Positions 9,652 to 27,933 of a stretch of 64,000 bases of DNA are shown here, piece after piece. The position numbers and the translations under genes are program-made. The DNA is from Candidatus Rokuibacteriota bacterium. Lineage in GTDB: Bacteria > Methylomirabilota > Methylomirabilia > Rokubacteriales > CSP1-6. The notes below the pieces were generated by a model. That model ran no database searches. It was given only the letters and a program-made list of their open reading frames with translations, and had not been told where the DNA came from. How positions within the stretch are numbered: position 1 is the stretch's first letter; every line of letters starts with the position of its first letter. Location of the stretch: contig QHSA01000145.1 in NCBI GenBank assembly GCA_003220315.1, forward strand, positions 1,087 to 65,086, read 5' to 3'.

Positions 9652-12021
<2,370 letters not shown>

Positions 12022-12130
12022 CCTCGAGTCTCTCCTTCACTCGCCTCGGCCGGCGGGGGCTCGATTCACAGACTCGCCTTGCCTGCAGCTGCGGCTCGCC
12101 CTGCGGCCCCGCGACGGCCTGCGGCTCACC

Positions 12131-13141
12131 TCACCCCTGATACGCGCGCGGGTTGTCTCCGCGCTGCGCTTTGAGCTTCTCGTAGAGGTCGCGTTCTCCT
12201 GGTGTCAGGTCGTTGGGCATCACGATCTTCACCGTGACGATCTGGTCTCCCGCCCCGCCCCCCTTGAGACGTGGCATCCCATAGCCAGGCAACCGGAACG
12301 CGCGGCCGCTCGAGGTGGCCGGGGGGATCCGCATCGACACGCGGCCCTTGAGCGTCGGGACCTCGATGGTCGTGCCCAGCGCGGCCTCCGGCGCCGTGAT
12401 GGGCACCGACACGTGGAGGTCGTCGCCCCGGCGCTCGAAGAGCGGGTGCGGTGACACCGTCACGGCGAGGTAGAGATCGCCGCGAGCTCCGGCGCCCCCG
12501 GCGCCCTCGCCGGAGACGCGCACCCGCTGGCCGCTCTTGACGCCCGCCGGGATCTTCACGTCGACCTGGCGGCGCGTACGCTGCCAGCCGCCGCCGTGGC
12601 ACGTCGCGCACGGCTGGCCCTTCACGTTGCCGGCACCCTGGCACGTCGGGCAGGGCTCGTCGAGGTCGAGCGCGAACGTCCGGTGCGTGCCGCTGAAGGC
12701 TTCCTCGAGCGTGATCTCGACGCTCGCCTGCACGTCCTGGCCACGACGGGGTCGACGCGCCCCGAACAGGTCCTCCGCGTCGAAGCCCGCGCGGCGCCCG
12801 CCGAGATCGCCGAACACCGAGCGGAAGAACTCGGAGAAGTCCCCGAGGTCGCCGAGATCTCCGCCGTACTGGACCCTGGAGCCGCCAGGTGCGCCGGGTC
12901 CGGGTTGGGCGTAGCGCTGCCAATCTGAGCCGAGTGTGTCGTAGCGCTGGCGCTTCTCCGGATCCGAGAGGACTTCGTACGCCTCGTTGATCTCTTTGAA
13001 CCGCTCGCCGGCGTCCTTCGTCTTGGCGACGTCGGGGTGATACTTGCGGGCGAGTCGCCGGTAGGCAGACTTGAGGGTCTTGTCGTCGGCGTTCCTGTCG
13101 ACACCGAGAATCCTGTAGTAGTCCTTGAATTCAACGCCCAT
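12131..13141 (-). CDS. J-domain co-chaperone (DnaJ/CbpA-like) with a reduced zinc-finger region (two CxxC instead of four).
   Basis: N-terminal J-domain with HPD (KYHPDV), G/F-rich region, CPTC...CATC motifs and DnaJ C-terminal domains. Confidence 0.85.
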   Translation of the reverse strand: MGVEFKDYYRILGVDRNADDKTLKSAYRRLARKYHPDVAKTKDAGERFKEINEAYEVLSDPEKRQRYDTLGSDWQRYAQPGPGAPGGSRVQYGGDLGDLGDFSEFFRSVFGDLGGRRAGFDAEDLFGARRPRRGQDVQASVEITLEEAFSGTHRTFALDLDEPCPTCQGAGNVKGQPCATCHGGGWQRTRRQVDVKIPAGVKSGQRVRVSGEGAGGAGARGDLYLAVTVSPHPLFERRGDDLHVSVPITAPEAALGTTIEVPTLKGRVSMRIPPATSSGRAFRLPGYGMPRLKGGGAGDQIVTVKIVMPNDLTPGERDLYEKLKAQRGDNPRAYQG

Positions 13142-13289
13142 GAGCCTCAGACCCTACAAAGAGTATAGCAGATGATTTTAGTGTGTCTCGCTCAGGCGGC
13201 GGATGGGATAGCCGACAGAGCGTTGCTGTAATTAATTGAAAAACAGGTAGTTTACCCAGTAAAGGCCAAGTCTTCAGCTCGCCCCAGAA
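13142..13289 (-). promoter_or_regulatory. AT-rich promoter island upstream of the DnaJ-like gene. Read on the minus strand it contains extended -10 TGcTATACT about 25 nt before the ATG and palindrome CTGTttttcAATTAATTacAG.
   Basis: 148 bp at roughly 45% GC in a 70% GC window. TATACT hexamer and AATTAATT-centred inverted repeat seen directly. Confidence 0.5.
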
Positions 13290-14777
13290 TCATCCTCGAC
13301 TAACCGTAAAGGCAACGTAGAGAGACATCTGGCCACGCTGGAGGAGGAAGGCAACCTGGTCGCCCTCCTTGACGTCGCGGGTGGCCCGCTCGAAGTCGGG
13401 GAGGCCTCGAACATTGGTGAGGACGTTCTGGCGCTTGATCTGCTTGACGACGTCACCACGCTGGATCCCGGCCTCGGCCGCCGCACTGCCCTCCTCGACA
13501 CGCGCGACGAGCACGCCCTCGGTCGACTTCAAGTTGAACCGCTGCGCGAGCTCGGGGGTGATGGGCCGCACCTCGAGTCCGAGCAGCGAACGCGGCCGCC
13601 CGGCCGGGCGCTCGCGCGCCTCGCGCTCGTCGGGCGCCTCGCTGACCTTGATCTCGACGGTCTTCTCGCTCTGGTCCCGCCAGACCTTCATCTTCGCGGA
13701 CTGGCCGGGCGAGAGCAGACCGACCGCGCGCTGCAGGTCCACCGGCCCTTCGAGCCTCTTGCCGTCGAACTCGACGAGCACGTCGCCGCGCTGGATTCCG
13801 GCCTTCGCCGCCGGGCTGTCGGGCACGATGTCGCTGACGAGCACGCCCCGGGCGTCCTTGACGCCGAACTCCCGCGCCAGCTCGGGCGTCAGCTGCTGGA
13901 TCTGGACGCCCAGCCAGCCGCGAGTCACGCGTCCCTTATCGAGCAGCTCCGTGTAGATCTTGCGGGCCATGTTCGACGGGATGGCGAAGCCGATGCCCGA
14001 GCCGCCGGCGACGATCGCCGTGTTGATGCCGATCACTTCGCCCTGCATGTTCACCAGCGGCCCACCGGAGTTGCCCGGGTTGATCGCGGCGTCGGTCTGG
14101 AGGAAATCGTCGAACGGCCCCTGGCCGATCTGGCGCGCCTTGGCGCTGATGATCCCCGCCGTCACGGTCGCCTGCAGGCCGAACGGCGATCCGACGGCGA
14201 GCACCCAATCGCCCACCTGGACCCGGTCCGAGTCGCCGACCTTCGCGGCCCGGAACGTGCCCTTGCCGTCGTCGAGCCGGAGCACGGCGAGGTCGGTCTT
14301 CCGGTCGAGCCCGACGACTTTCGCCTTGTGCTTGTTGCCGTCGAGCGTGATCACCTCGATGTCCGTCGCCCGCTCGACGACGTGCGCGTTGGTGAGGGCG
14401 ATCCCCTTGGGGTCCACGATGACGCCCGAGCCGAGGCTCCGCAGCGGGATGCGCTCGGGCAGCTCGCCGAAGAAGCGGCGGAAGAACTCCTCGCCGAAGA
14501 ACTCCTCGAACGGCGTGCGCCCCTGGAGGCCGGCGCCCCGCGACAGCGTGTTGATATTGATGACGGCCGGCTTGATCGCCTCCGCCACTGCGGCGAACGA
14601 CACGGTCGGCAGCGGCATCTGCACCGGCACGATGCGCGGCTGGGCCTGAGCCGTCGCGGCCGGCCCCGGCGTCTGTCCGGGCTCGATCCGGCCCTTGGCG
14701 AGGGCGCCCAGCGTGACGCCGATCAGTAGAGTGACCGCGACCACACCCAGGAACGTGTTCCGCCGGAGCTGCATCAT
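13290..14777 (-). CDS. htrA: Do-family serine endopeptidase DegP/HtrA (trypsin-like domain plus two PDZ domains).
   Basis: Signal/TM N-terminus, catalytic triad context (TNAHVV, D, GNSGGPLVN) and two PDZ-like repeats. Confidence 0.9.
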   Translation of the reverse strand: MMQLRRNTFLGVVAVTLLIGVTLGALAKGRIEPGQTPGPAATAQAQPRIVPVQMPLPTVSFAAVAEAIKPAVININTLSRGAGLQGRTPFEEFFGEEFFRRFFGELPERIPLRSLGSGVIVDPKGIALTNAHVVERATDIEVITLDGNKHKAKVVGLDRKTDLAVLRLDDGKGTFRAAKVGDSDRVQVGDWVLAVGSPFGLQATVTAGIISAKARQIGQGPFDDFLQTDAAINPGNSGGPLVNMQGEVIGINTAIVAGGSGIGFAIPSNMARKIYTELLDKGRVTRGWLGVQIQQLTPELAREFGVKDARGVLVSDIVPDSPAAKAGIQRGDVLVEFDGKRLEGPVDLQRAVGLLSPGQSAKMKVWRDQSEKTVEIKVSEAPDEREARERPAGRPRSLLGLEVRPITPELAQRFNLKSTEGVLVARVEEGSAAAEAGIQRGDVVKQIKRQNVLTNVRGLPDFERATRDVKEGDQVAFLLQRGQMSLYVAFTVSRG

Positions 14778-14793
14778 TGCTCCACTCTCCCCG

Positions 14794-16692
14794 TCACGCC
14801 ACGCCCTCGCCGGCCAGGGCGCGCCGCAGCGGCTCGCCTTCCAGCGTCTCCAAGCGCTTGAGCTCTTGCGCCGCGGCCACGAGCACCGCCTTCTTGGCCG
14901 TGAGGATGCCGCGCACGCGGTCGTGGGTCCGGTCGAGGATCGCGCGGACCTCTTCGTCGATCGTCCGCGCCGTCTCCTCGCTGTAGTCGCGCTCGCCCAT
15001 CCCCGTGCCCTTGAGGAAGAGCGGCGTGCGCTCGCCGAACGTCGCCAGCCCCACGCGCTCGGACATCCCGTACTTCGTGACCATCAGGCGGGCGATCTCC
15101 GTCGCGCGCTCGAGGTCGTTGTGCGCGCCCGTCGAGACCTCACCGTAGACGAGCTCCTCGGCCACACGGCCGCCGAGGAGCACCGCGATCCGGTCCTCGA
15201 GCTCCCGACGCGTCATGAGGAAGCGGTCCGCGGTCGGCAGCTGGTAGGTCATCCCGAGCGCGGCGACCCCGCGCGGGATGATCGTCACCTTGTGCACCGG
15301 GTCGGCGTTGACGACCGACGAGGCCACGAGTGCGTGTCCCATCTCGTGGTGGGCGACGATGTCGCGCTCTTTCTCCGAGAGCACCCGACTCTTCTTTTCG
15401 AGTCCCGCGACGACGCGATCGATCGCTTCTTCGAAGTCGGCCATGCCCACGGCGTCCTTCTCCTTCCGCGCCGCGAGCAGCGCCGCTTCGTTGACGATGT
15501 TGGCGAGGTCCGCGCCCGCGAAGCCAGGCGTCCGGGCGGCGATCACGCCCAGGTCGACGCTCGGCGCCAGGACGACGTTGCGGGCGTGCAATCTCAAGAT
15601 CGCCTCCCGGCCGCGGATGTCCGGCTTGTCCACGACCACCTGACGGTCGAAGCGGCCCGGACGCAGGAGGGCCAGATCGAGGACCTCGGGGCGGTTCGTC
15701 GCGGCCATGATGATGACACCCTTGGACGAGTCGAAGCCGTCCATCTCCGCGAGCAGTTGGTTCAGGGTCTGCTCGCGCTCGTCGTGGCCGCCGACGAACC
15801 CGGTCGCCCCCGCCCGCGACTTGCCGATCGCGTCGAGCTCGTCGATGAAGATGATGCACGGCGCCTTGTCTTTCGCCTGCTCGAACAGGTCGCGCACGCG
15901 CGCGGCGCCGACACCGACGAACATCTCGACGAACTCCGAGCCGGAGAGCGTGAAGAACGGCACGTCGGCCTCGCCCGCCACCGCGCGCGCCAGGAGCGTC
16001 TTTCCCGTGCCCGGCGGACCGACGAGGAGGACGCCCTTCGGGATACGACCGCCGAGGCGCTGGTACTTCTTCGGATTCTGGAGGAAGTCGACGATCTCGA
16101 CCAGCTCGGCCTTCGCCTCGTCGACGCCCGCCACGTCGGCGAACGTCGTCTTCAGCTCCTTCCGGTCGTAGATCTTGTGCTTGGAGCGGCCGAACGACAA
16201 CGCCTGCGTCGGCCCGCCGCCCACCCGGCGCATCAGGAACATCCAGATCGCGACCATGACGCCGAGCGGGAGGACCCAGCCGAAGAAGAGGTCGCGCAGG
16301 AACGTCGACTCGATCTTGCCCGTGAACTCAACCCGGTGCGCCTCGAGCTCGGTGATGAGCCGCCCATCGTCGATGCCGGGAATTCGGGTGACGGTGAAGA
16401 CGCGGACCTCGGAGCTCGAGCCGAGCAGCTCGCGGAGCCGGTCCCGGGCGCCGCCGGGCGCGGTCGGCAGGGCGTCGGGCTTCGCGACCCCCCGGACCTC
16501 GCGGTCGGTGATCGCCACACGCTCGATCTTGTCGGCCCGCAGCAGCTCGAGGAACTGCGACATCGACAGCTCCACGGTCCGGGGCGCCAGGAGCCAGGAC
16601 TGGAGGAACGACAGCACGACCATCGTGACGAGCAGGTACGCGAGTGTGAACTGGAAGCGCTGGGACAGCTGCGGCTTCATCGAGGGCCTCAA
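14794..16692 (-). CDS. ftsH: ATP-dependent zinc metalloprotease FtsH.
   Basis: Two N-terminal TM helices, AAA Walker [12 protein letters not shown] region and zinc-binding HEMGH. Confidence 0.95.
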
Positions 16693-16847
16693 AGGGTGAT
16701 GCTAGCCTCGGGGATGCAGTGTGTCAAACGCGCGCGGGCGCTTTTCTCCTTGACACTCCAACCGCTTTGACCTAAAAGTTGGCGCTGATCGGGCCTGTGA
16801 ATTCGCGAACAAGCGCATCGAGAGCTTAGGGTCGGCCAACGTCGCTG
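16693..16847. promoter_or_regulatory. Divergent intergenic region (ftsH vs CydA-like gene) with a TTGACA-N17-TAAAAG candidate promoter on the plus strand.
   Basis: TTGACA at about 16749 seen in sequence; the -10 is weak. Confidence 0.3.
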
Positions 16848-18656
16848 TTGAGCTCTAATCCGGGAGCCAGGGTGAGGGGTCTCCACGTGGTCCGGCAGGC
16901 CGTCCGGGCGGCCGTGCCGGTGGCGGCTCTGCTGCTCGCGGCGACCGCGCTGCCGGCCGCGGCCCAGGAGGCGGCCAGGGAGCCCGCGTACCGGGCCTTC
17001 CCGTTGATCGGCTCTCGGCTCGCCGTCTGGGCGATCGCGCAGCTCCACCTGAACTTCGCGGCCTTCATCCTCGGCGTGCCGATCTTCGCGGTGATCATCG
17101 AGATCATCGGGTGGCGCACGGGTGCCCCGCGCTACGACTGGCTCTCCCACGAGTTCGTCAAGCTCATCTTCGCCGCCTTCTCGACGACCGCGCTCCTGGG
17201 CGCGTTCCTCCTGTTCCTGTTCGTCGGCTACTACCCGAAGTTTTGGGCGTACATGACGTCGATCTTCTTCCCGACGTACTGGATCTACGCGCTCCTCTTC
17301 TTCGCCGAGACGTTCACGGTCTACCTCTGGTACTACGGCTGGGAATGGCTCAGCGGACCGCGGAAGTGGGTCCACGTCAGCCTGGGCGTCCTCTCGAACC
17401 TGTTCGGCACGGCGATCCTCCTCATCGGGAATTCCTGGGTCACCTTCATGATGTCGCCCGCCGGCGTCACCGAGACGGGCGCGCTCAAGGGGTCGGTCTG
17501 GGCGGCGATCAACAACTCCACGTGGATGCCGATCAACATCCACCGGTTGATCGCCAACATCGTCTTCGGTGGCACGATCGCCGCGGCGTACGCCGCGTTC
17601 CGCTTCCTCAACGCGACGACCGACGAGGAGCGCGCGCGCTACGACTGGATGGGCTACGTCGGCAACTTCGTCGCGCTCTCGGCGTTCATCGTCCTGCCCT
17701 TCGCCGGCTACTGGCTCGGCCGCGAGATCTACGCCTTCAACCAGACGATGGGCATCACGATGATGGGCGGGTTCATGTCGTGGCTCTGGATCATCCAGGC
17801 CATCCTGATCGGCGTCCTCTTCCTCGGCTCGAACTACTACCTCTGGCTCGGGATGGAGCGGATCCCCGGCTCCGAGCGCTACCGGAAGTACGTGCCCTAC
17901 ATGCTGACGATCCTGGCGATCGGCTTCATGGTGTGGGCGACGCCGCACAGCCTGATCGTGACCCTCGAGGAGGCCCGGGCGATGGGCGGCACGCACCATC
18001 CCTTCCTCGGCTTCTTCGGCGTCATGTCGGCCAAGAACACGGCCGTGAACCTCATGATCCTCACGACGTTCCTCTCGTACGTCCTGTACCGCCGGGCCAA
18101 CCGGCTCTCGATCCGGCCCTGGGTGGTGATCGGGATGGCGATCCAGTGGGCGGCCTTCGCCGTCGCCGCGGCGATCGTCGTCTTCTACGGGGTGTACGGC
18201 TATTTCGTCGAGTCGATCGTGCGGATCGGGTTCTCCGTCTACCAGGTGGGCGCGGTCCTCGGCGCGATCGTTCTGGTGATGACGATCGACGTCCCGATGT
18301 TTCGCGGCGCCAAGTCCACCGGCGCGATCCGATGGGGCAGCATCCCGGCGCGCTCGCAGTACGTGCTGATCCTGCTCGCCGTCACCTTCACCTGGCTCAT
18401 GGGGCTCATGGGCTTCGCGCGCTCGGGCATCCGGCAGTACTGGCACGTCTACGGCATCCTGCGCGACACGTCGGTTGACGCGGTGACGCCGGCGCTCGGC
18501 TACGCGGCCAACATGATCACGACCGTCACCATCGTCTTCTTCGCGCTGGTGATGTTCATCTTCTGGCTCGGCGGCCTCTCCGAGAAGGGCAAGCCGGGAG
18601 CGCACGGCGCGGCGGCGATGCCGGTGATCGCCGGCGGGAGCGAGGATCCTCGCTAG
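16848..18656 (+). CDS. Cytochrome bd superfamily CydA-like protein (orphan subunit I homolog with N-terminal signal/anchor extension, no adjacent cydB, short Q-loop).
   Basis: Alignable with E. coli CydA helices 1-5: the His19 equivalent in AQLHLNF, the Glu99 equivalent in FAETF, GWEWL matching GWDRL, NSWVTFMMSP matching NGWMQNPIAS, and the His186 equivalent in NIHRL. Confidence 0.75.
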   Translation: MSSNPGARVRGLHVVRQAVRAAVPVAALLLAATALPAAAQEAAREPAYRAFPLIGSRLAVWAIAQLHLNFAAFILGVPIFAVIIEIIGWRTGAPRYDWLSHEFVKLIFAAFSTTALLGAFLLFLFVGYYPKFWAYMTSIFFPTYWIYALLFFAETFTVYLWYYGWEWLSGPRKWVHVSLGVLSNLFGTAILLIGNSWVTFMMSPAGVTETGALKGSVWAAINNSTWMPINIHRLIANIVFGGTIAAAYAAFRFLNATTDEERARYDWMGYVGNFVALSAFIVLPFAGYWLGREIYAFNQTMGITMMGGFMSWLWIIQAILIGVLFLGSNYYLWLGMERIPGSERYRKYVPYMLTILAIGFMVWATPHSLIVTLEEARAMGGTHHPFLGFFGVMSAKNTAVNLMILTTFLSYVLYRRANRLSIRPWVVIGMAIQWAAFAVAAAIVVFYGVYGYFVESIVRIGFSVYQVGAVLGAIVLVMTIDVPMFRGAKSTGAIRWGSIPARSQYVLILLAVTFTWLMGLMGFARSGIRQYWHVYGILRDTSVDAVTPALGYAANMITTVTIVFFALVMFIFWLGGLSEKGKPGAHGAAAMPVIAGGSEDPR

Positions 18657-18906
18657 TGTCCCGTCTGAAAAGTCATGTTAACGACTGCCGCGCTCGCGCC
18701 GCGCAGCGGCCGACGGGCAGGTGCGGCAGGGGTCGACGGGACCCGTTCCCGCCCGTGGGCGACGGACACCGTGTCCCCAAATGGAGCCCAGCCGCAACGG
18801 GGCAGCGCACGCGTGCCGCGTGGTCCCGCGATCCCTGCCGCGCGTGCCCGTCGGCCCCGGCGCCGTGCGCTGGCGGGCGCTCAACATGACTTCGAGGACG
18901 GGACAC
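18656..18906. repeat. About 250-bp intergenic element bounded by 24-nt terminal inverted repeats (GTGTCCCGTC-tgaaa-AGTCATGTT ... AACATGACT-tcgag-GACGGGACAC); MITE-like or structured RNA.
   Basis: Arms seen directly, starting at the last base of the CydA-like stop codon and ending 5 nt before the downstream ATG. Internal palindrome GGACACcGTGTCC. Confidence 0.45.
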
Positions 18907-18911
18907 TAGCG

Positions 18912-19709
18912 ATGCGTGTTCCAGTCGGGCTCAAGCTCAGCGTCTTCTCGCTGGCCGTCATGGGCGTGTACACGTACTTCGCCAACTCGATCCCCCAGAT
19001 CGAGTCCAAGCCCCCCGAGGAGCTCTCGCTGGAGGGTGGCAACGTCACGCCGGCGCAGCTGGTCAAGGCGGGCGAGCAGATCTTCCACACGAAGGGGACC
19101 TGCGAGGTCTGCCACAAGATCGGCGAGAAGGGCACGCGCGCCCCCGATCTCGCCGGGGTCGGCGCCCGCGCCGCCAAGCGCAAGCCCGGCCAGAGCGCCA
19201 AGCAGTATCTGATCGAATCGCTCCTCGATCCCGGCGCCTACCTCGTCGAGGGGTATCCGAACATCATGCCGCGCGTCGACAAGCCGCCGATCGGGCTCAA
19301 CCGATCCGAGCTCTGGGCGGTGGTGGCCTTGCTCGAGTCGCTCGGGGGCAGCGTCGACGTCAAGCTCGATGACATTCCCAAGACCGCCGGGGCCCCGGCG
19401 GTCGGTGGGACGGCGGCCGAGCTCAAGCTGCCCGGCGACCCGAAAGCGGGCGAAGCGGTGTTCGCCGGCAAGGGGGCGTGCATCGCCTGTCACAAGGCGG
19501 GCAAGGTCGGCGCCGCGCAGGTCGGGCCCGATCTGTCGCAGATCGCGCGGATCCAGACGCCCGAGTACATCATGGGCAAGATCCTGAACCCCTCGGCGAT
19601 GGGCACCGTGGCGGGCTACCCGAAAGGCGTCATGCCACCGATCTTCGGCCAGACCCTGACGGCGAAGGAGTACGTGGACCTCGTCTCCTTCCTGCTGACC
19701 CTCAAATGA
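18912..19709 (+). CDS. Membrane-anchored dihaem c-type cytochrome.
   Basis: N-terminal TM helix and two CxxCH motifs (CEVCH, CIACH). Confidence 0.8.
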   Translation: MRVPVGLKLSVFSLAVMGVYTYFANSIPQIESKPPEELSLEGGNVTPAQLVKAGEQIFHTKGTCEVCHKIGEKGTRAPDLAGVGARAAKRKPGQSAKQYLIESLLDPGAYLVEGYPNIMPRVDKPPIGLNRSELWAVVALLESLGGSVDVKLDDIPKTAGAPAVGGTAAELKLPGDPKAGEAVFAGKGACIACHKAGKVGAAQVGPDLSQIARIQTPEYIMGKILNPSAMGTVAGYPKGVMPPIFGQTLTAKEYVDLVSFLLTLK

Positions 19710-19716
19710 CGCCGGC

Positions 19717-20469
19717 ATGAGCGTCCTCCGCTCGCGCTTCGTCCAGGCCGTCGTCATCCTCGTCGGCGCCTTCCTGGCGCTGCGCTTTGGCATCCGTCCG
19801 CCGGCGCCCTGGAGCGTGATCCAGATCTACATGGCGGTGGTGTTCCTGGCGGTGCTTATCTTCGTCTCCTCCGACACGGACTCGTGGCGCTCCTTCGTGA
19901 ACCCGATGCGCGCCGCGCTGGTCGACCCGAGCCAGCGGCCAGTGCGCATCGTGCTCGCGGTCGCGCTGCCGATCCTGCTCGGCTACTACGCCTACACGCA
20001 GGCGGCGGCCAGGCCGCAGGCGCCCGCCGAGCTGCGCGCGGTGCATCCGGCGCCGCCGGGCTCGATCCAGTTCCGGGGCAAGGAGATCAACATCGCGGGC
20101 GTCGACAACCCGCTCCGCAAGGACGTGGCGACCTTCAAGAGGAACGTCGCGGCGGGCGGCGAGATCTACGTTCGGAGCTGCATGTTCTGCCACGGCGACA
20201 ATCTCGACGGCCACGGGCTCTTCGCCTCCGCGCTGAACCCGCCGCCGGCGAATTTCGAGGACCCCGGGACGATCGCGATGCTGCAGGAGTCGTACCTCTT
20301 CTGGCGGATCGCCAAGGGCGGGCCGGGGTTGCCCAGGGAATCGACGCCGTGGAACTCGGCGATGCCGGCGTGGGAGGATCGCCTGACCGAAGAGCAGATC
20401 TGGCAGGTCATCGCCTATCTGTACGACGCGACCGGCCAGGAGCCGCGGCGCTGGGAGACGGCGCACTGA
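19717..20469 (+). CDS. Membrane-bound monohaem c-type cytochrome (two N-terminal TM helices plus class-I cytochrome c domain).
   Basis: One CxxCH (CMFCH) with a downstream Met ligand context. Confidence 0.8.
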   Translation: MSVLRSRFVQAVVILVGAFLALRFGIRPPAPWSVIQIYMAVVFLAVLIFVSSDTDSWRSFVNPMRAALVDPSQRPVRIVLAVALPILLGYYAYTQAAARPQAPAELRAVHPAPPGSIQFRGKEINIAGVDNPLRKDVATFKRNVAAGGEIYVRSCMFCHGDNLDGHGLFASALNPPPANFEDPGTIAMLQESYLFWRIAKGGPGLPRESTPWNSAMPAWEDRLTEEQIWQVIAYLYDATGQEPRRWETAH

Positions 20470-21926
20470 TGCGTGCGATCGTCCTGGTCGGCGCGCTCGC
20501 GAGCGCCGTCTTCCTGTTCGCGAGCGCTTCACCAGCGGGGGCGCAGGCAGGGGATGCCCAGGCGGGGAGGGCCGTGTACGAGAGGAAGTGTGCGCTGTGC
20601 CACGGGGAGAAGGGCGACGGCAAGGGGCCGGGCGCCGACCTCCTCGACCCGCGGCCGCGCGATTTCACCACGGGGATCTACAAGATCCGCACCACGGTGA
20701 ACAAGACGCCGACCGACCGGGACCTCTTCGACGTGATCACCCGCGGCATGCCTGGCACGTTCATGCCCGCGTGGGACGTCCTGCCCGAGAAGGACCGCTG
20801 GAACCTGGTCGCCTACCTCAAGGCGTTCGCCGCGGACAAGTTCAAGGAGGCGCCGAAGAAGCAAGAGCTGCCGAAGGAGGTCGCCTCGTCGCCGGAGTCG
20901 ATCAGGCGGGGCAAGGAGATGTACGAGGCAATCGAGTGCAACAAGTGCCACGGCGCCGAGGGCCGGGCCGACGGCCCTTCGCGCCCCGAGCTCAAGGACG
21001 AGTGGGGACATCCGATCCGGCCCGCGAACCTGACAAAGCGTTGGACCTTCCGCGGCGGAGGCGGCCGCGCGGAGATCGCGATGCGGCTCACGACCGGCGT
21101 GCTGGGCACGCCCATGCCGTCGTTCATCGACTCGGTGGAGAAGCCCGACGACATCTGGCACCTGGCGAACTACCTCGCGTCCCTCGGGCCCGAGTCGCCC
21201 CACTACGCGACGCTCCTGACCGCCGAGGCGGTGAACGGCGACATCCCGGCCGATCCCGTCGCGGAGTTCTGGAAGCGGATGGCGCCCCAGAACATTCCCC
21301 TGGTGGGGCAGGTGACCATCGACCCACGGAACTTCAACCCCTCCATCGACATGGTGGCGCTGCGGGCGGCGTGGAACGACAAGGAGGTCGCCTTCCACGT
21401 GACCTGGGACGACCCGACGCAGTCGGGGGCGGACGCCGCGAAGAAGGCCTCTCCCGACGTCGTCTCGCTCCAGTTCCCCCAGAAGGTCGCGGAGGGCGCG
21501 GACCGCCCGTACTTCCTCATGGGCGGAGACGCGGACGCCGTGTATCTGCTGCGGTGGGAGAACGGCAAGGGCGCGACCGAGGCGAGCGCGAACGGGCCGA
21601 CCCGGATCGTGCCGCTCGCAGGCGGCGAGGTGACGGGCCAGGCCGCGTACGCGAACGGCCAGTATCGGCTCGTCCTCAAGCGGCCGCTCGTGTCCAAGGG
21701 CCCCGACCGGCCCACGTTCCAGCCGGCGGTCTTCCTGCCGATCGCGTTCCAGGCTTGGGACGGCGGCGCGGGGGAGACCGGGGCCAAGATGTCGCTGACC
21801 TCGTGGTACTATCTGCGGCTGGAGGAGCCTCAATCGAGCCGCCGTTTCGTCGTTCCTCCGGTCGTGGCGATCCTCACGTTCGCGGCGATGCTGCTCGTGG
21901 TTCGCGTCGCGAACAGACGCGCGTAA
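20469..21926 (+). CDS. Dihaem c-type cytochrome with a roughly 300-aa C-terminal beta-rich domain and C-terminal TM anchor.
   Basis: Signal peptide, CALCH and CNKCH motifs. ATG overlaps the upstream stop (TGATG). Confidence 0.8.
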   Translation: MRAIVLVGALASAVFLFASASPAGAQAGDAQAGRAVYERKCALCHGEKGDGKGPGADLLDPRPRDFTTGIYKIRTTVNKTPTDRDLFDVITRGMPGTFMPAWDVLPEKDRWNLVAYLKAFAADKFKEAPKKQELPKEVASSPESIRRGKEMYEAIECNKCHGAEGRADGPSRPELKDEWGHPIRPANLTKRWTFRGGGGRAEIAMRLTTGVLGTPMPSFIDSVEKPDDIWHLANYLASLGPESPHYATLLTAEAVNGDIPADPVAEFWKRMAPQNIPLVGQVTIDPRNFNPSIDMVALRAAWNDKEVAFHVTWDDPTQSGADAAKKASPDVVSLQFPQKVAEGADRPYFLMGGDADAVYLLRWENGKGATEASANGPTRIVPLAGGEVTGQAAYANGQYRLVLKRPLVSKGPDRPTFQPAVFLPIAFQAWDGGAGETGAKMSLTSWYYLRLEEPQSSRRFVVPPVVAILTFAAMLLVVRVANRRA

Positions 21927-21941
21927 CCTCGCGGAGGATGG

Positions 21942-22023
21942 TAGTGCGAGCCGAGCGGCGGCCGCGGAGGCTCGGCGACGCGCGCCGCGAGGCGAGTCTG
22001 AGAACCCAGTAGTGCGAGCCGAG
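21942..22023 (+). promoter_or_regulatory. Direct repeat TAGTGCGAGCCGAG x2 (68 bp apart) flanking a GCCGAGC...GCTCGGC hairpin upstream of the cupredoxin-like gene; candidate operator/terminator region.
   Basis: Repeats at 21942..21955 and 22010..22023 seen directly. An AAGGAG Shine-Dalgarno sits 7 nt before ATG 22054. Confidence 0.3.
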
Positions 22024-22053
22024 GCGAGCGGACGAAGAAAAGGAGTCAGAGCA

Positions 22054-22752
22054 ATGCGGAGAGCACTCGGAGTCGTCCTGGCGGCGGCGCTCGTCGCGGG
22101 CGTCGCGCTGTTCGTCCAGCGCCCCGACCCTGTGGACGCCCAGGGAGGGGGCACCGTCGAGGTCACGGTCACGTATAACGGCGCGCCCGTCGTCGAGAAG
22201 CTCAAGGTCAACAAGGACACCGAGAAGTGCGGGACCGAGGCCGTGATCGAGAAGGTCGTGGTCGGCGGCAACAAGGGCCTGGCCAACGCGGTCGTCTCCG
22301 TCCCGACCGCCAAGGGCGCGCCGAAGATGGCGAAGGCGACGGTCGACCAGCATGGCTGCAAGTTCGTGCCGCACGTGACCGCGATGACGCCGGGCGACCT
22401 CGAGCTCAAGAACTCCGACGACATCCTGCACAACATCCATACGTACTCGACGGCAAACCCGTCCATCAACAAGGCGCAGCCGAAGTTCAAGAAGGTGATG
22501 ATGGAGAAGTTCGAGAAGCCCGAGATCATCAAGCTCACCTGCGACGTGCACAGCTGGATGCTCGGCTGGGTGGCGGTCCTGCCGACCCCGTTCTTCGCGG
22601 TCTCGGACGCCAGCGGCGCGGCCAAGATCGAGAACGTGCCGGCGGGCAAGCAGACCGTCGAGGTCTGGCACGAGACGCTCGGCAAGCAGACGAAGGAGGT
22701 CGACGTCAAGGCGGGCCAGGTGGTGAAGGTCGGGTTCGAGATGAAGAAGTAG
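22054..22752 (+). CDS. Secreted cupredoxin-like (type-1 copper motif) protein, paralog 1.
   Basis: Signal peptide. Conserved HNxH ... CDVHSWM (Cys-x2-His-x2-Met) ligand spacing as in amicyanin-type blue copper proteins. Strong Shine-Dalgarno at 22054. Paralogous to 29227..30036. Confidence 0.6.
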   Translation: MRRALGVVLAAALVAGVALFVQRPDPVDAQGGGTVEVTVTYNGAPVVEKLKVNKDTEKCGTEAVIEKVVVGGNKGLANAVVSVPTAKGAPKMAKATVDQHGCKFVPHVTAMTPGDLELKNSDDILHNIHTYSTANPSINKAQPKFKKVMMEKFEKPEIIKLTCDVHSWMLGWVAVLPTPFFAVSDASGAAKIENVPAGKQTVEVWHETLGKQTKEVDVKAGQVVKVGFEMKK

Positions 22753-22771
22753 GGCGAGGAGGCTCGCGAGC

Positions 22772-23419
22772 ATGCTCGACTGGTGGCTGCCAGAGAACGT
22801 GTCGACGTACGGAGCGGAGATCGACTGGCTGTTCCATCTCATCTACTACATCACCGGCGCGACGTTCGTCCTCGTCTTCGTCACGATGCTCGTGTTCATC
22901 GTGATGTACCGCGACCGGCCCGGGCGGACCGCGCGGTACACGCACGGCAACACCCCGCTCGAGATCGCGTGGACCATCGTGCCGGCGCTGATCCTCGTGA
23001 TCCTGACGGCCCTCAGCGTGCCGGCGTGGTCGAGGATCAAGATGCAGGTACCGGCGAGCGACTTCGACGTCAACGTGACGGCGAAGCAGTTCAACTGGCA
23101 GGTCGGCTACCCGGGGAGCGACAAGGTCTTCCTCGACGAGATGCACGTGCCGGTCAACAAGGTCGTCCGGGTGCACCTCAGGTCGCAGGACGTGATCCAC
23201 AGCTTCTTCGTCCCGCAGTTCCGCATGAAACAGGACGCGGTGCCGGGCCGCGAGATCGTCCAGTGGTTCGAGGTGGTCAAGCCGGGCAAGTACGAGTGGC
23301 CGTGCGCGGAGCTGTGCGGGTTCGGCCACTCCGGGATGCGCGGCTGGATCTACGTGCACACGCCCGAGGACTACGCCAAGTGGGCGGCCGAGAACCTTGA
23401 GGGAAAGGGCAAGCAATGA
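22772..23419 (+). CDS. coxB: Cytochrome c oxidase subunit II (no fused cytochrome c domain).
   Basis: Two TM helices and CuA centre (H...CAELCGFGHSGM). Confidence 0.95.
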   Translation: MLDWWLPENVSTYGAEIDWLFHLIYYITGATFVLVFVTMLVFIVMYRDRPGRTARYTHGNTPLEIAWTIVPALILVILTALSVPAWSRIKMQVPASDFDVNVTAKQFNWQVGYPGSDKVFLDEMHVPVNKVVRVHLRSQDVIHSFFVPQFRMKQDAVPGREIVQWFEVVKPGKYEWPCAELCGFGHSGMRGWIYVHTPEDYAKWAAENLEGKGKQ

Positions 23420-25170
23420 GCGCCACCAGCGCGACCGCGCATGCGCACGTCGAGCCCGCCGGGCACCACGAGCTCGGTTTCGTCCGGACCTACATGTTCT
23501 CCACGGACCATAAGATGATCGCCCGGCAGTTCCTGTTCCTCGGGCTCTCCATGATGATCATCGGCGGCCTGCTGGCGCTGGTCGTCCGCTGGGAGCTCGC
23601 GTGGCCCGAGACGCCCGTGCCAGGGCTGGGGATGATCCTCACGGAAACCGGGGGGATCCTCGAGCCCTCGCAGTACAACATGGCGTTCACCATGCACGCG
23701 ACGATCATGATCTTCTTCGTGATCATGCCGATCCTGGCGGGCGCCTTCGGGAACTTCTGCATCCCGCTGATGATCGGCGCCCGTGACATGGCGTTCCCGT
23801 TCCTCAACATGCTGTCGTTCTGGGTCGCCGCGGTCGCCGGCGTGCTCATGCTCGCCGGCTTCTTCGTGCCGGGCGGCCACGCCGCCGCGGGGTGGACCTC
23901 CTACGCACCGCTCTCCGCCGTGCCGGAGTACACGGGAACGAACTGGGGGCAGAACCTCTGGTGCATCAGCCTCTTCGTCCTCGGCATCTCGTCGATGATG
24001 GGCGCGATCAACTACATCACGACGATCATCAACATGCGGGCGCCGGGCATGAAGCTCTTCCGGATGCCGCTCGTGGTCTGGTCGCTCTTCATCACCGCGA
24101 TCCTGCTCTTGCTGGCGCTGCCGGTCCTCACCTCGGGCGTCGCGATGCTCCTGTTCGATCGCACGCTCGGGACGAGCTGGTTCAAGCCGTCGGGCGGCGG
24201 CGAGCCGCTCCTCTGGCAGCACCTCTTCTGGTACTTCGGTCACCCCGAGGTGTACATCCTGATCCTGCCCGCGATGGGCATCGCCTCGGAGATCCTCCCG
24301 GTCTTCTGCCGCAAGCCGATCTTCGGCTACCACGCGATGGCGTTCTCGATGATCGCCATCGCGTTCCTCTCGTGGGTCGTCTACGGCCACCACATGTTCG
24401 TGAGCGGCATGAACCCGGCGCTCGGGATGGCGTTCACCGTGACCACCATGATCATCGCCGTGCCGTCGGCCATCAAGACGTTCAACTGGCTCGGCACGCT
24501 CTGGGGCGCCCGGATCCAGTTCACCGTGCCGATGCTGAACGCGCTCGCGTTCGTCTCGATGTTCGTCATCGGCGGGCTCTCGGGTATCTTCATGGCCTCG
24601 ACGCCGGTCGACATCTACATCCAGGACACGTACTTCATCGTCGCGCACATCCACTACGTCGTCTTCGGCGGCTCGATCTTCGGTGCGTTCGCGGCGATCT
24701 ACTACTGGTTCCCGAAGATGTTCGGCCGGATGACGAACACGGTCCTGGGGCACCTCCACTTCTGGCCGACGTTCGTCTTCTTCAACCTCACGTTCTTCCC
24801 GATGCACATCATCGGCGTCGGTGGCCAGATGCGGCGCATCTACAACCCGATGCAGTACGAGTTCCTCCAGCACCAGCAGCACTGGAACGTGTTCATCACG
24901 ATGTCGGCGCTCGCTCTCGGCCTCGGGCAGATCCCCTTCGTCATCAACTTCTTCTGGTCCCTCTTCGCGGGGAAGAAGGCGCCGCTGAACCCATGGAACG
25001 CGAACACGCTCGAGTGGACCGCGGCGTCGCCGCCGCCGCACCTGAACTGGGGGCCGACACTGCCGACGGTGTACCGCGGCCCGTACGAGTACAGCTCACC
25101 CGAGTCCAGGGACGACTGGCTGCCGCAGACCGCGCCGCCGGTCACCGCCGCGGGAGCGCGGCGCCACTGA
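23416..25170 (+). CDS. ctaD: Cytochrome c oxidase subunit I (A-family haem-copper oxidase).
   Basis: 12-TM protein with WFFGHPEVY and haem/CuB His ligands. ATGA overlap with coxB. Confidence 0.95.
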   Translation: MSATSATAHAHVEPAGHHELGFVRTYMFSTDHKMIARQFLFLGLSMMIIGGLLALVVRWELAWPETPVPGLGMILTETGGILEPSQYNMAFTMHATIMIFFVIMPILAGAFGNFCIPLMIGARDMAFPFLNMLSFWVAAVAGVLMLAGFFVPGGHAAAGWTSYAPLSAVPEYTGTNWGQNLWCISLFVLGISSMMGAINYITTIINMRAPGMKLFRMPLVVWSLFITAILLLLALPVLTSGVAMLLFDRTLGTSWFKPSGGGEPLLWQHLFWYFGHPEVYILILPAMGIASEILPVFCRKPIFGYHAMAFSMIAIAFLSWVVYGHHMFVSGMNPALGMAFTVTTMIIAVPSAIKTFNWLGTLWGARIQFTVPMLNALAFVSMFVIGGLSGIFMASTPVDIYIQDTYFIVAHIHYVVFGGSIFGAFAAIYYWFPKMFGRMTNTVLGHLHFWPTFVFFNLTFFPMHIIGVGGQMRRIYNPMQYEFLQHQQHWNVFITMSALALGLGQIPFVINFFWSLFAGKKAPLNPWNANTLEWTAASPPPHLNWGPTLPTVYRGPYEYSSPESRDDWLPQTAPPVTAAGARRH

Positions 25171-25175
25171 AACGG

Positions 25176-26069
25176 GTGAGGGCGGTGGCGCACCGAGTGG
25201 CGCTCGTCACGCTGGCGGCGACGTTCGTGCTGATCCTCTTCGGGGGGCTCGTCACGAACACGGGCTCGGCCCTGGCGGTGCCGGACTGGCCGAGCACGTT
25301 CGGCGACAACCTCTTTGTGTTTCCGTGGTCCCAAATGGTTGGCGGGATCTTCTACGAGCATGGCCACCGGCTCATCGGCGCTCTCGTGGGGCTCTTGACA
25401 CTCGGCCTGGCCGCGACGCTCTGGCGCACGGGTGGGCGGCTCCGCTGGCTCGGCCTGGCCGCCGTCGCGGCCGTCGTGGCCCAGGGCGTGCTCGGCGGGC
25501 TCCGCGTGGTGCTCCTGGCAGACACGCTCGCGATCGTCCACGGGAGCCTGGCCCAGGCGTTCTTCGGATTGCTCTCGGCGATCGCGCTCCTCACCTCGCG
25601 CGCGGCGGAGCGCCCACCGGGGGACGTGGACCCGTCGCTGCGCTCACTGACGCTCGGCGCCGCCGGCCTCGTGTACCTTCAGATCGTGCTCGGCGCCCTC
25701 TTGACGCACGCGGGCTGGCTCGCGCTCCATCTCGCGGGGGCCGTGGCCGTCTTCGCGGTCGTGCCGACCGTGACCGCTCGGCTCCGGCGGAGCGCTGATA
25801 CCGTTGCCGCCCCCGTCGCCCGGACGCTCCTTGCGCTGCTGGGCGTCCAGCTGTTCCTCGGCGTCGGGAGCTACCTCGCGCGATTCTCGCCGATCGGGAT
25901 CCCGGGCGGGCAGACGACGATGCTCGTTCTGCCGGTCGCCCATCGGCTCGTCGGAAGCCTCATCTTCGGCGCCACGGTGGTGCTCGCCGTGCGTGTCGGC
26001 TCGCGGGTCCCGGAGGTGACGGTGGGACGGGAGCGGGGCCGGGTCGCGCCTCCCGTGAGCGCGACATGA
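25176..26069 (+). CDS. ctaA: Haem A synthase (CtaA/COX15 family); start codon uncertain (GTG 25176).
   Basis: Eight-TM protein with paired His residues in the HxxxR/HR contexts typical of CtaA. Begins 6 nt after the ctaD stop. Confidence 0.7.
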   Translation: MRAVAHRVALVTLAATFVLILFGGLVTNTGSALAVPDWPSTFGDNLFVFPWSQMVGGIFYEHGHRLIGALVGLLTLGLAATLWRTGGRLRWLGLAAVAAVVAQGVLGGLRVVLLADTLAIVHGSLAQAFFGLLSAIALLTSRAAERPPGDVDPSLRSLTLGAAGLVYLQIVLGALLTHAGWLALHLAGAVAVFAVVPTVTARLRRSADTVAAPVARTLLALLGVQLFLGVGSYLARFSPIGIPGGQTTMLVLPVAHRLVGSLIFGATVVLAVRVGSRVPEVTVGRERGRVAPPVSAT

Positions 26070-27007
26070 AGAACGGAGCCGGGGCGCGCCTCGACGGCGG
26101 CCTCGCGGTGTCGGCTCCCACGGTCATGGCCGCCTCGATCGCGCGCGAGCGACGCCGGGTCCTCGCCGACCTGGTCGCCCTCGCCAAGCCGCGGGTCGTT
26201 CTCATGATCCTCGTGACGGCGGCCGTGGGCTATTACGTCGGGCTGGCGGGCGCGCCGGACTACGCGCGACTGCTGCACCTCCTGGTCGGCACGCTCCTGG
26301 CGGCGGGCGGATCGCTCGCGCTGAATCAGTACTGGGAGCGCGACGTCGACGCGCGCATGGAGCGCACCCGGGCGCGGCCTCTGCCCGACGGCCGGCTCGC
26401 GCCGCTCGAGGCGCTCCTGTTCGGGAGCGCCCTCACGGCCCTGGGCCTCGTCTACACCGCCGTGTTCATCGGCGGGCTCGCGCTCGGCGTCACCGCCGCG
26501 ACCGCGGCGCTCTACCTGTTCGTGTACACGCCGCTGAAGCTCAGGACGCCGCTCTGCACGCTCATCGGCGCCGTGCCCGGGGCGCTCCCGCCCGTGACGG
26601 GCTGGGTGGCGGCCCGTGAGGACCTGGGCGTGGGCGCCTGGGTCCTGTTCGGGATCCTCTTCCTCTGGCAGCTCCCGCACACGCTCGCGATCGCGCGGCT
26701 CTATCGTGACGACTACGCCCGCGCCGGCGTCCGTCTGCTGCCGGTCGTGGACGCCGAGGGAAGCAGCACCGAGCGGCAGATCGTGACGGGGTGTCTCGCG
26801 CTCCTCGTCGTGAGCCTCCTGCCGACGCTGATCGGGCTCGCGGGCGCGGTCTACTTCGTCGGGGCGTTCCTGATGGGAGCAGCGTTCGCCGCGCTGGGCA
26901 CCTGGCAGGCGTTCGTGCCCTCGACCGGCTCGGCGCGCCGCGTGCTCCTCGCGTCGCTCCTCTACCTGCCAGCGCTCCTGGCGCTCCTGGCGTTCGACAA
27001 GGCATGA
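26066..27007 (+). CDS. ctaB: Protohaem IX farnesyltransferase (haem O synthase CtaB/CyoE).
   Basis: UbiA-family motifs (NQYWERDVDARMERTRARPL; D-rich) and 8-9 TM helices. ATGA overlap with ctaA. Confidence 0.9.
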   Translation: MKNGAGARLDGGLAVSAPTVMAASIARERRRVLADLVALAKPRVVLMILVTAAVGYYVGLAGAPDYARLLHLLVGTLLAAGGSLALNQYWERDVDARMERTRARPLPDGRLAPLEALLFGSALTALGLVYTAVFIGGLALGVTAATAALYLFVYTPLKLRTPLCTLIGAVPGALPPVTGWVAAREDLGVGAWVLFGILFLWQLPHTLAIARLYRDDYARAGVRLLPVVDAEGSSTERQIVTGCLALLVVSLLPTLIGLAGAVYFVGAFLMGAAFAALGTWQAFVPSTGSARRVLLASLLYLPALLALLAFDKA

Positions 27008-27881: not shown

Positions 27882-27933
27882 GCGCTGCCGTGAGCCCGGC
27901 GCGCAACGACCACGACACGCTCAAGGAGACGAT

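Follow-up and report, generated by a model that had tools for sequence, protein, structure and literature searches.

What kind of complex is encoded where a CydA-like gene without cydB is followed by genes for c-type cytochromes and stands directly upstream of an aa3 oxidase cluster? This question is raised by a locus in a 64-kb stretch of DNA from a Candidatus Rokuibacteriota bacterium, the whole of which is called the window here. An earlier note had recognised four open reading frames, an orphan CydA homologue and three cytochromes c, and had proposed either a cytochrome-c-dependent bd-type reductase or a cupredoxin-linked electron module feeding the aa3 oxidase. The four frames exist on the + strand at the coordinates given there, and these two proposals are the readings that survive the analysis.

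The bd-like subunit and its haem sites

The first gene (16848–18656, + strand) encodes a CydA homologue of the OR-N2 type, 602 aa long when read from a TTG start; the GTG at 16887 (589 aa) corresponds to the start in database homologues and is likelier than the TTG at 16848. In Pfam, residues 56–574 match PF01654 (Cyt_bd_oxida_I) with 48.2 bits, the gathering score being 26.2, and a HMMER profile built from 19 diverse homologues matches the solved CydA chains 5doq_A (E = 6.8e-16), 9r2g_A (1.5e-14) and 6rko_A (1.9e-8). Identity to solved CydA is only 13–20%, yet no solved structure lies nearer than canonical CydA. The protein begins with an N-terminal signal peptide or TM0/anchor, followed by about 13 TM helices; it contains no CXXCH, and it carries the GWEWL and NSWVTFMMSP motifs, as had been noted. 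The reported lack of a quinol-binding Q-loop is confirmed, and all known CydA quinol-binding elements are missing. A scan of about 55 ORFs across the window turned up no cydB (PF02322), and the operon contains no second cydA.

In the HMMER alignment to solved CydA, the His of AQLHLNF corresponds to H19 and that of INIHRL to H186, as the earlier note had proposed. The Glu that it had taken for Glu99, in FFAETF, aligns instead with E. coli E107 (G. thermodenitrificans E108), and the E99 position is occupied by an invariant Tyr seven residues upstream. An invariant Ser likewise stands in place of the b595 ligand Glu445. Across 48 bd-like sequences of 33–95% identity, H54 (H19), E72 (E74), E141 (E107), H163 (H126), H219 (H186) and M380 (M393) are invariant, with E. 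coli numbering in parentheses. It is thus well supported by these alignments that the predicted TM1–4 haem pocket and the predicted His/Met low-spin haem b site are kept while the Q-loop is lost. Since Glu445 is replaced by Ser and Glu99 by Tyr, the predicted di-haem O2 site is not intact by canonical criteria.

Three cytochromes c and the case for one complex

The three c-type cytochromes that follow carry two, one and two CXXCH motifs, in agreement with the dihaem, monohaem, dihaem order described before. The first, c2 (18912–19709, + strand), is a membrane-anchored dihaem protein with one N-terminal TM helix and PF00034/PF13442 matches, and it shows 27% identity to a 439-aa dihaem cytochrome c at the same operon position in Nitrospira. 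The second, c1 (19717–20469, + strand), is a membrane monohaem protein with 2–3 TM helices and a PF13442 match, 39% identical to a 345-aa monohaem cytochrome of Nitrospira. The third, c2EB (20469–21926, + strand), whose start shares 1 nt with the c1 stop codon, has a signal peptide, a dihaem part and a C-terminal TM anchor. The C-terminal region formerly described as a beta-domain is more exactly an EB_dh domain of the NxrC/EbdC type, and c2EB is the equivalent of alt_NxrC_2. Its domain matches are PF13442 (twice), PF09459 (65.8 bits) and TIGR03477 (94 bits, under its cut-off); the dihaem part matches 6h5l_B (E = 1.9e-49), the match to NXR-C 7b04_C is weak, and a Nitrospira protein of 593 aa is 30% identical over 540 aa. 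The EB_dh domain is a putative haem b binder, in which no invariant Met was found and a candidate Lys is present in five of the six sequences compared.

The order bd-like, c2, c1, c2EB is kept in all 66 Methylomirabilota loci. In addition, natural fusions join bd-like to c2 (L087, P0121, P0408, P0409, P0413 and P0490) and c1 to c2EB (NC10 loci and L087), and one 5.1-Mb contig carries both kinds of fusion. Because of these fusions, the 66/66 collinearity and the 1-nt overlap of c1 and c2EB, the prediction that the four genes encode one membrane complex is well supported. A MITE-like insertion of about 250 bp (18657–18906), with 30-nt terminal inverted repeats and 48-nt inner arms, separates the bd-like stop codon from the start codon of c2. 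It is missing from a 96%-identical locus (L001) and from four other loci, and is single-copy within the window and the 85 loci compared; it sits inside the operon, yet is no part of the complex.

The location directly upstream of the aa3 cluster also holds, the cluster beginning 85 bp 3' of c2EB with cup1 (22012–22752, + strand), a cupredoxin-like protein with an N-terminal anchor, a C-terminal CarboxypepD_reg-like beta-sandwich and weak Pfam matches. Its invariant His/Cys/His/Met set (H140, C177, H180, M183) is common to cup2 and three Nitrospira homologues, and in most Rokubacteria loci cup1 follows c2EB. The A-type haem-copper oxidase genes (22772–28893, + strand; Pfam matches COX2, COX1 at 509 bits, COX15-CtaA, UbiA, two COX3 and COX4_pro) comprise coxB (22772–23419), coxA (23416–25170), ctaA (about 25167–26069), ctaB (26066–27007), two COX3-like genes (27198–27881 and 27934–28551) and coxD (28564–28893). 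They are followed, on the same strand, by a DUF983 protein (PF06170; 28925–29293) and by cup2 (about 29380–30036), which has a T1-copper-type ligand set and closes the oxidase block. Among Methylomirabilota loci extending far enough, 46 of 51 have coxB within 3 kb downstream of c2EB.

Next comes an accessory set (30046–34762, + strand), identified by Pfam and NCBIfam matches and tightly associated with the module in several phyla: two Usp, three PCP_red and a Cys4 Zn-ribbon protein (30046–31941), an AhbD/NirJ-like radical SAM/SPASM enzyme with a C-terminal PCP_red domain (32080–33480), a small membrane protein (33477–33905) and an Mrp/ApbC-like P-loop ATPase (33926–34762). This set adjoins the four-gene module in Rhodocaloribacter (L086), in L088–L090 and in NC10 loci L078 and L080. 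In the reverse test, the module lies directly upstream in 18/18 loci fetched with the Usp-PCP_red protein and having more than 6 kb upstream. Meanwhile, in at least 10 soil metagenome loci and in L088–L090, actA/actB (Qrc-like, TIGR04519) and cytochrome c genes lie immediately next to the bd-like gene, their stop and start codons overlapping, and no NrfD-type ActC/ActF gene was found in these loci; in NC10 locus L078, a canonical actCBA adjoins the module.

Placement in the cytochrome bd superfamily

Murali, Gennis and Hemp (2021) defined the OR-N2 subfamily, with Nitrospira sp. TKS59798.1 as reference. The well-supported assignment of the module to this branch is made because it agrees with their description in TM count, signature residues and operon content: a CydA-like protein with 14 predicted TM helices that lacks both a quinol site and CXXCH; an operon without a second cydA or cydB and with several cytochromes c and an EbdC homologue; and identical residues at H19, E99 (Tyr), E107, H126, H186, M393/N, E445 (Ser) and W441. 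The H219-M380-S513-W519 spacings also equal those of the published reference. The same features bear out the earlier suggestion of a bd-like family presumed to use cytochrome c. The window host differs in being a Rokubacterium and not a member of Nitrospirota, and its cluster runs on into an A-type oxidase operon.

Also well supported is orthology with Manganitrophus TO_1 and with the Nitrospira cluster of bd-like_3, two cytochromes c and alt_NxrC_2, the latter reported to be conserved in Nitrospina and Kuenenia as well (Lucker 2010/2013, Mundinger 2019). Nitrospira locus L085 is collinear gene for gene, with identities of 46/27/39/30% for bd-like, c2, c1 and c2EB, and cupredoxin-like and PCP_red/Zn-ribbon proteins lie near both. 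Unlike that cluster, the window has no nearby NXR genes and no duplicated solitary bd-like_4, and whereas Nitrospira are reported generally to lack haem-copper oxidases, the window module is directly followed by an aa3 operon.

With canonical CydAB (E. coli 6rko, G. thermodenitrificans 5doq, M. smegmatis 9r2g) the protein shares the H19, E107, H126 and H186/M393 equivalents, but it has no Q-loop and no CydB/CydX, possesses four additional TM helices plus a signal peptide, carries Tyr for Glu99 and Ser for Glu445, and has c-type cytochromes as partners. The OR-C family, in which a haem c domain is fused to the C-terminus of CydA, likewise has lost the quinol site and is presumed to use cytochrome c as donor, and fusions to a dihaem c occur among close homologues of the window protein; however, OR-C proteins have about 8 TM helices and keep Glu99, whereas the window protein has 13–14, no CXXCH and Tyr at 99, and this assignment was rejected in favour of OR-N2. 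The module resembles ActABCDEF/Qrc in pairing periplasmic multihaem and membrane components directly upstream of an aa3-type oxidase, and actA/actB-like genes share its operon in related soil loci. It differs in that the window lacks ActA, ActB and the NrfD-type subunit, and its membrane subunit belongs to another family and binds haems.

Candidate functions

The favoured reading, to which we give about an even chance, is that the complex is a terminal (O2) reductase fed by cytochrome c or cupredoxin. Electrons would enter from periplasmic cytochrome c or from the two blue-copper-type cupredoxins that bracket the oxidase genes, and travel along five c haems and the haem of the EB_dh domain to the bd-like subunit, first to its His219/Met380 haem and then to its His54 haem pocket, which would reduce a high-potential acceptor, most likely O2. 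Protons would be drawn from the cytoplasm via the conserved Glu141/His163 (E. coli E107/H126) path, so that turnover would be electrogenic without pumping. By analogy with the canonical bd mechanism, such a path would be required for reduction at the haem pocket but not for pmf-driven reverse flow to quinone. OR-N enzymes have been proposed as O2 reductases in Nitrospirales and Nitrospinota, and it has been reported that Manganitrophus TO_1 is expressed at the 98th percentile, that the bd-like_3 cluster of N. moscoviensis is among its 40 most transcribed genes, and that ACIII genes often neighbour oxygen reductases, as actCBA would in L078. Against an O2 reductase, the predicted di-haem O2 site departs from the canonical one, the literature records no purified or assayed OR-N member, and the module is reported to be conserved inside the NXR cluster of strictly anaerobic anammox bacteria; moreover, two cytochrome-c-type terminal oxidases per apparent transcription unit would be unusual, whereas a complex-III-like module is commonly found ahead of an oxidase.

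The same anammox occurrence would fit another role, proposed explicitly by Lucker (2013) and Mundinger (2019) and ranked second here as a tentative possibility: an ACIII-like coupling module, not an oxidase, in which a new quinone/quinol site in the bd-like subunit would link the quinone pool to periplasmic cytochrome c or cupredoxin, serving as a complex III equivalent that feeds the downstream aa3 in Rokubacteria and running in reverse in nitrite oxidisers and anammox bacteria. The cup1-coxBA genes immediately 3' in 46/51 loci with no convincing terminator between, the actA/actB genes abutting bd-like without ActC/ActF, and the failure to find bc1 or ACIII within the window are consistent with it. 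However, no alternative can be shown for the missing CydA quinol-binding elements, and the CydA haems are all located close to the periplasmic side, which leaves the fold without an electron path across the membrane. With a cytoplasm-side proton path, either quinol oxidation would be dissipative or quinone reduction would generate pmf, which is opposite in sign to what reverse electron flow requires. In L078 the complete ActABC beside the module indicates that it does not replace ACIII there, and a similarity to ActF may only mirror a shared layout of two four-helix bundles, since CydB scores alike. In an unlikely role, the complex would anchor to the membrane a periplasmic molybdoenzyme (nitrite oxidoreductase, for example) whose genes lie elsewhere, and would draw off its electrons, with the EB_dh subunit docking the catalytic alpha-beta dimer as an alternative NxrC. 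The homology of c2EB to alt_NxrC_2 points this way, as does TIGR03477, the DMSO-reductase type II gamma subunit family; the entire set of genes, for alternative NxrC, a monohaem and a dihaem c, two cupredoxins, a Zn-finger protein and bd-like, is reported to be conserved beside nxr in Nitrospina, Kuenenia and Nitrospira, and NXR genes are reported for some Rokubacteria. Yet no molybdopterin enzyme was found in the window or within 10 kb in 80 Methylomirabilota loci, and the linkage of the module to any CISM enzyme is far looser than that to the Usp-PCP_red set and to cox/act genes. Rhodocaloribacter litoris, a cultured aerobic heterotroph and not a nitrite oxidiser, also carries the module with no nxr-like gene within 10 kb. 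As for an ordinary quinol-oxidising cytochrome bd with cydB encoded elsewhere, the Pfam family is the same and qOR2-type bd oxidases are reported as possible in Methylomirabilota genomes; this very improbable reading is effectively refuted by the absent Q-loop, the extra TM helices, the two replaced glutamates, the low identity to solved CydA, and strict synteny with, and fusion to, c-type cytochromes.

The branch itself is already named: the same gene set has been described since 2010–2013 in Nitrospira, Nitrospina and Kuenenia, and OR-N has been tabulated for Methylomirabilota. What is new here is an OR-N2 member in a soil Rokubacterium, adjoining its aa3 oxidase. If the complex is a terminal reductase, it would give Rokubacteria a second terminal branch alongside the aa3 oxidase encoded next to it, with donors shared between the two.

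Gene organisation of the bd-like module and its neighbours

The window has a G+C content of about 70%, and proteins from Candidatus Rokubacteria MAGs of the phylum Methylomirabilota match its bd-like protein with 100% identity. The bd-like gene (16848/16887–18656, PF01654) is followed on the same plus strand by genes for a dihaem cytochrome c (c2, 18912–19709), a monohaem membrane cytochrome c (c1, 19717–20469), and a dihaem c protein with an EB_dh domain (c2EB, 20469–21926); the stop codon of c1 shares one base with the start codon of c2EB. Further along the plus strand are a cupredoxin-like gene (cup1, 22012–22752); coxB, coxA, ctaA, ctaB, two COX3-like genes, and coxD (22772–28893); a DUF983/Zn-ribbon gene (28925–29293); a second cupredoxin-like gene (cup2, about 29380–30036); and genes for a Usp/PCP_red/Zn-ribbon protein (30046–31941), a radical SAM/SPASM/PCP_red protein (32080–33480), a small membrane protein (33477–33905), and an Mrp-like ATPase (33926–34762). 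Upstream of the module, ftsH, degP, dnaJ, and clpB lie on the opposite strand. Pfam scans of about 55 ORFs detected no cydB, nxr, bc1, or ACIII genes in the 64-kb window, and the promoter and terminator scan of 16500–33800 stayed at chance level, with 5 found against 5.6 expected. The two COX3-family genes of the oxidase cluster are consecutive (27198–27881, 227 aa; 27934–28551, 205 aa).

Among 80 Methylomirabilota loci, the four genes of the module are collinear in every one of the 66 that hold them all. Fusions also occur: L087, a homologous locus on a contig of 5.1 Mb, has two genes in place of four at 10001–15005, namely bd-like::c2 (919 aa) and c1::c2EB (746 aa), and c1 and c2EB are fused in the NC10 loci L080 (12551–14734) and L078 (12560–14797). 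Further bd-like::cytochrome c fusions are found among the database clusters (P0121, P0408, P0409, P0413, P0490). Collinearity, fusions, and the one-base overlap are taken as indications that the four genes encode a single complex. The fused proteins measure 882–1014 aa for bd-like::dihaem c and 727–746 aa for monohaem c::dihaem-c/EB_dh, and such natural two-gene fusions would be convenient constructs for expressing the complex. The haem b ligands of EbdC are a Met/Lys pair; the EB_dh domain has no invariant Met and a candidate Lys in five of six sequences, and it is regarded here as a putative haem b binder.

The 255-bp gap between bd-like and c2 to which the earlier note drew attention is due to a MITE-like insertion of about 250 bp (18657–18906), which separates the stop codon of bd-like from the start codon of c2 and has terminal inverted repeats of 30 nt (18650–18679 and 18883–18912), inner arms of 48 nt, and the palindromic target TCGCTAGCGA. 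The insertion is missing from the 96%-identical locus L001, where the bd-like stop and c2 start codons are adjacent, and from four other relatives in which the two genes likewise abut. No second copy was found in the window or in 85 loci.

A coxB gene lies within 3 kb after c2EB in 46 of the 51 loci that extend far enough, the exceptions being L070 and four Methylomirabilales/Methylomirabilis/NC10 loci (L054, L056, L078, L080). In L078 and L080 the Usp-PCP_red, radical SAM, and Mrp set is directly upstream of the module, and L078 also carries a canonical actCBA beside it. The products of cup1 (22012–22752) and cup2 (29380–30036) are paralogues bracketing the cox operon. These cupredoxin-like proteins combine an invariant His/Cys/His/Met set with a CarboxypepD_reg-like C-terminal domain, and three homologues occur in the Nitrospira locus L085. 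Since no cytochrome c domain is fused to CoxB (215 aa), the cupredoxin-like proteins may be its electron donors.

Fold, residues, and family placement of the bd-like subunit

The bd-like protein is a CydA homologue of the cytochrome bd superfamily. Its PF01654 score of 48.2 bits exceeds the cut-off of 26.2. With phmmer, the single sequence matched nothing among the PDB sequences, and a profile of 19 homologues (29–58% identity) recovered CydA of G. thermodenitrificans (5doq_A, E = 6.8e-16) and of E. coli (E = 1.9e-8). The matches to solved CydA chains span helices 1–5 only, and in HMMER profile alignments the sequence past TM5 is not alignable to CydA. An AlphaFold model built from 48 sequences (pLDDT 80.7, pTM 0.84) contains the CydA core fold of two four-helix bundles and a ninth helix, and its top Foldseek matches are all CydA chains. 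No solved structure nearer to the protein than the canonical bd oxidases was found, and no NCBIfam model matches the bd-like or cupredoxin-like proteins. The topology comprises 13 TM helices and an N-terminal signal or anchor, with no CXXCH motif. A Q-loop is absent, as the earlier note had stated: both TM prediction and the model place only about 10 residues after TM6, followed by four additional inserted helices, and the longest hydrophilic loop of the protein has at most about 28 residues.

Residue positions were read from HMMER alignments and counted in 48 Rokubacteria and Nitrospirota sequences of 33–95% identity; numbering follows the 589-aa form, to which 13 is added for the 602-aa form. 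H54 (H67 in the longer form) corresponds to H19, which axially ligates the haem of the active site, and all 48 sequences have it. The equivalences E72 = E74, E141 = E107, H163 = H126, and H219 = H186 are likewise invariant. The position of E99 is occupied by an invariant Tyr, Y134, and the residue that the earlier note had taken as the Glu99 equivalent is consequently that of Glu107 (E141). The spacings of H219, M380, S513, and W519 equal those of the published OR-N2 reference (H269, M430/N434, S563, W569); thus M380 corresponds to M393 and W519 to W441, and Ser513 is placed at position 445 through this spacing. M380/N384 and S513 are invariant, and W519 is found in 47 of the 48. Glu99 and Glu445, which belong to the haem d/b595 environment, are therefore not kept, their places being taken by the invariant Tyr134 and Ser513. 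Other invariant residues are H371, H520, R512, and R516, which the helix order in the model would place on the periplasmic side.

OR-N2, a branch of the cytochrome bd superfamily, has been defined by 14 TM helices, the lack of a quinol site, the frequent lack of another cydA-like gene, and an operon with multiple cytochromes c and an EbdC homologue (Murali, Gennis & Hemp supplement, bioRxiv 10.1101/2021.01.16.426971), and Methylomirabilota are already OR-N-positive in the table of these authors. The bd-like protein shows the OR-N2 residue signature (H19, Tyr at 99, E107, H126, H186, M393/Asn, Ser at 445, W441) together with 13–14 TM, no CXXCH, and no quinol site, and the window has the corresponding operon type, with several cytochromes c, an EbdC homologue, and no second cydA. 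By TM count, residue signature, and operon content it is thus assigned to OR-N2 from sequence comparison, with tree placement by proxy through 46% identity to the Nitrospira bd-like_3 protein and a collinear operon. The family-level reading of the earlier note is borne out by the OR-N2 signature, the TM count, and the operon content, and its observation is real. OR-C membership was rejected, as OR-C proteins have a haem c motif within CydA and about 8 TM helices, against no CXXCH and 13–14 TM here; homologues with a fused cytochrome c do exist. A canonical CydAB with a remote cydB was rejected on Q-loop, ligand, and synteny evidence. No cydB (PF02322) was found in the roughly 55 window ORFs or in the 66 syntenic loci, in agreement with the earlier claim that a CydB partner is missing.

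In Nitrospira sp. Kam-Ns4a (L085) the same four genes occur in the same order, with identities of 46, 27, 39, and 30%, and this locus also has homologues of both cupredoxin-like proteins and a PCP_red protein. The set corresponds to the cluster described as 'bd-like_3 / two cytochromes c / alt_NxrC_2' (Mundinger 2019) and to TO_1 of Manganitrophus, and the same genes have been reported to be kept beside NXR in Nitrospina, Kuenenia, and Nitrospira (Lucker 2013). All components of the NXR-associated set (alt NxrC, mono- and dihaem c, two cupredoxin-like proteins, a Zn-finger protein, and bd-like) are found within 16848–31941 of the window; however, the NXR-associated module adjoins nxrABC, whereas that of the window does not, and neither the window nor the flanks of 80 related loci yielded a molybdopterin oxidoreductase. 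The module is a further member of a known, biochemically uncharacterised family, and the window adds no new family. Other Nitrospirota contexts (P0390, P0311, P0144) contain solitary bd-like paralogues without cytochromes. L085 also carries, within 1–11902, a second bd-like gene upstream of the bd-like_3 cluster. In front of this gene lie those for a PCP_red protein, DUF420, and three cupredoxin-like proteins, as well as a very large ORF that resembles multicopper oxidases, a gene content reminiscent of the accessory content of the Rokubacteria locus.

Accessory, putatively tetrapyrrole-handling genes and Act/Qrc-like hybrids

The accessory set of the window (30046–34762) consists of a protein with two Usp, three PCP_red, and a Cys4 Zn-ribbon, an AhbD/NirJ-like radical SAM/SPASM enzyme with a C-terminal PCP_red, and an Mrp/ApbC-like ATPase, to which a small PCP_red protein and a GNAT are added in some lineages. 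It is tightly linked to the module in Rokubacteria, NC10, Rhodocaloribacter, and the soil-metagenome/long-contig lineage L088–L170, as in L080 (4715–9281), L090 (15073–21092), and L086 of Rhodocaloribacter litoris (16833–21842), where the module is followed by the same set. The Usp-PCP_red protein is 51–61% identical across phyla, above the conservation of the bd-like protein. In the reverse test, in which 80 metagenome loci were fetched via the Usp-PCP_red protein, the full module was directly upstream in all 18 loci whose upstream sequence exceeded 6 kb. The best NCBIfam matches of the radical SAM enzyme, AhbD (304 bits) and NirJ2 (302 bits), both fall under the cut-off and point to a tetrapyrrole substrate, and the set may serve as a dedicated system that modifies or inserts a tetrapyrrole. 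No description of its linkage to the bd-like module was found in the literature.

In three long contigs (L088, 5136–15291; L089, 5268–15504; L090, 5651–14968) and at least 10 soil metagenome loci (L097–L166), the bd-like gene is directly adjoined by genes for an ActA/QrcA-like multihaem cytochrome, an ActB-like protein (QrcB+QrcC, TIGR04519), and a cytochrome c, and in one soil lineage stop and start codons overlap between the Act/Qrc-like genes and the module. These hybrid loci have no NrfD-type ActC/ActF gene, so that the bd-like gene stands where ACIII/Qrc has its quinone-binding subunits. The window itself has none of the ACIII subunits (pentahaem ActA, Mo-like/FeS ActB, NrfD-type ActC/ActF); ActA/ActB-like proteins join the module only in other lineages.

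Possible functions of the module

The favoured reading, to which about an even chance is given, is that the module would be a terminal reductase, probably of O2, fed by cytochrome c or cupredoxin. It is favoured because neither the pocket ligand nor the proton-path residues on the cytoplasmic side vary, because the field reads OR-N enzymes in this way, and because the proton path suits substrate reduction rather than reverse flow to quinone. Cytoplasmic protons would reach the reduced substrate through this conserved path; for a reverse flow to quinone driven by the pmf, its sign would be wrong. Four facts argue against a terminal reductase: the replacement of Glu445 by Ser and of Glu99 by Tyr, the presence of the module in anaerobic anammox bacteria, its location directly upstream of the aa3 operon, and the replacement of ActC/ActF by the bd-like gene within Act-like operons. 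They leave room for an ACIII-like quinol:cytochrome c role, which is considered rather unlikely. The module could possibly also anchor an NXR-type enzyme encoded elsewhere, since NXR has been reported in some Rokubacteria (Becraft 2017), but nothing within the window supports this.

A joint reading, which we consider improbable, is that the module would be just one half, the visible one, of a more extensive system not described before, in which the accessory set would make and insert a modified tetrapyrrole for the bd-like subunit, and in which, in some soil lineages, the bd-like protein would have replaced the NrfD-type subunits of an ActAB/Qrc-like complex. If true, the system would be a respiratory complex of a new class, served by a haem cofactor pathway of its own and widespread in soil bacteria. 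The accessory tetrapyrrole-type set and the Act–bd-like hybrids are the parts of most follow-up value.

In Nitrospira, Nitrospina, and Manganitrophus, oxygen is presumed to be reduced mainly by OR-N enzymes. No member of the family has been purified, and the question of whether these enzymes reduce O2 or link to the quinone pool dates from 2010. Rokubacteria, an abundant group in soil, carry the module as a standard feature, wired to a conventional aa3 oxidase; it travels with conserved putative tetrapyrrole-handling genes and is present in the cultured bacterium Rhodocaloribacter litoris. Routes to the question of OR-N function are thereby provided in the form of an experimental host, two-gene fusions for expression, and a candidate cofactor pathway.
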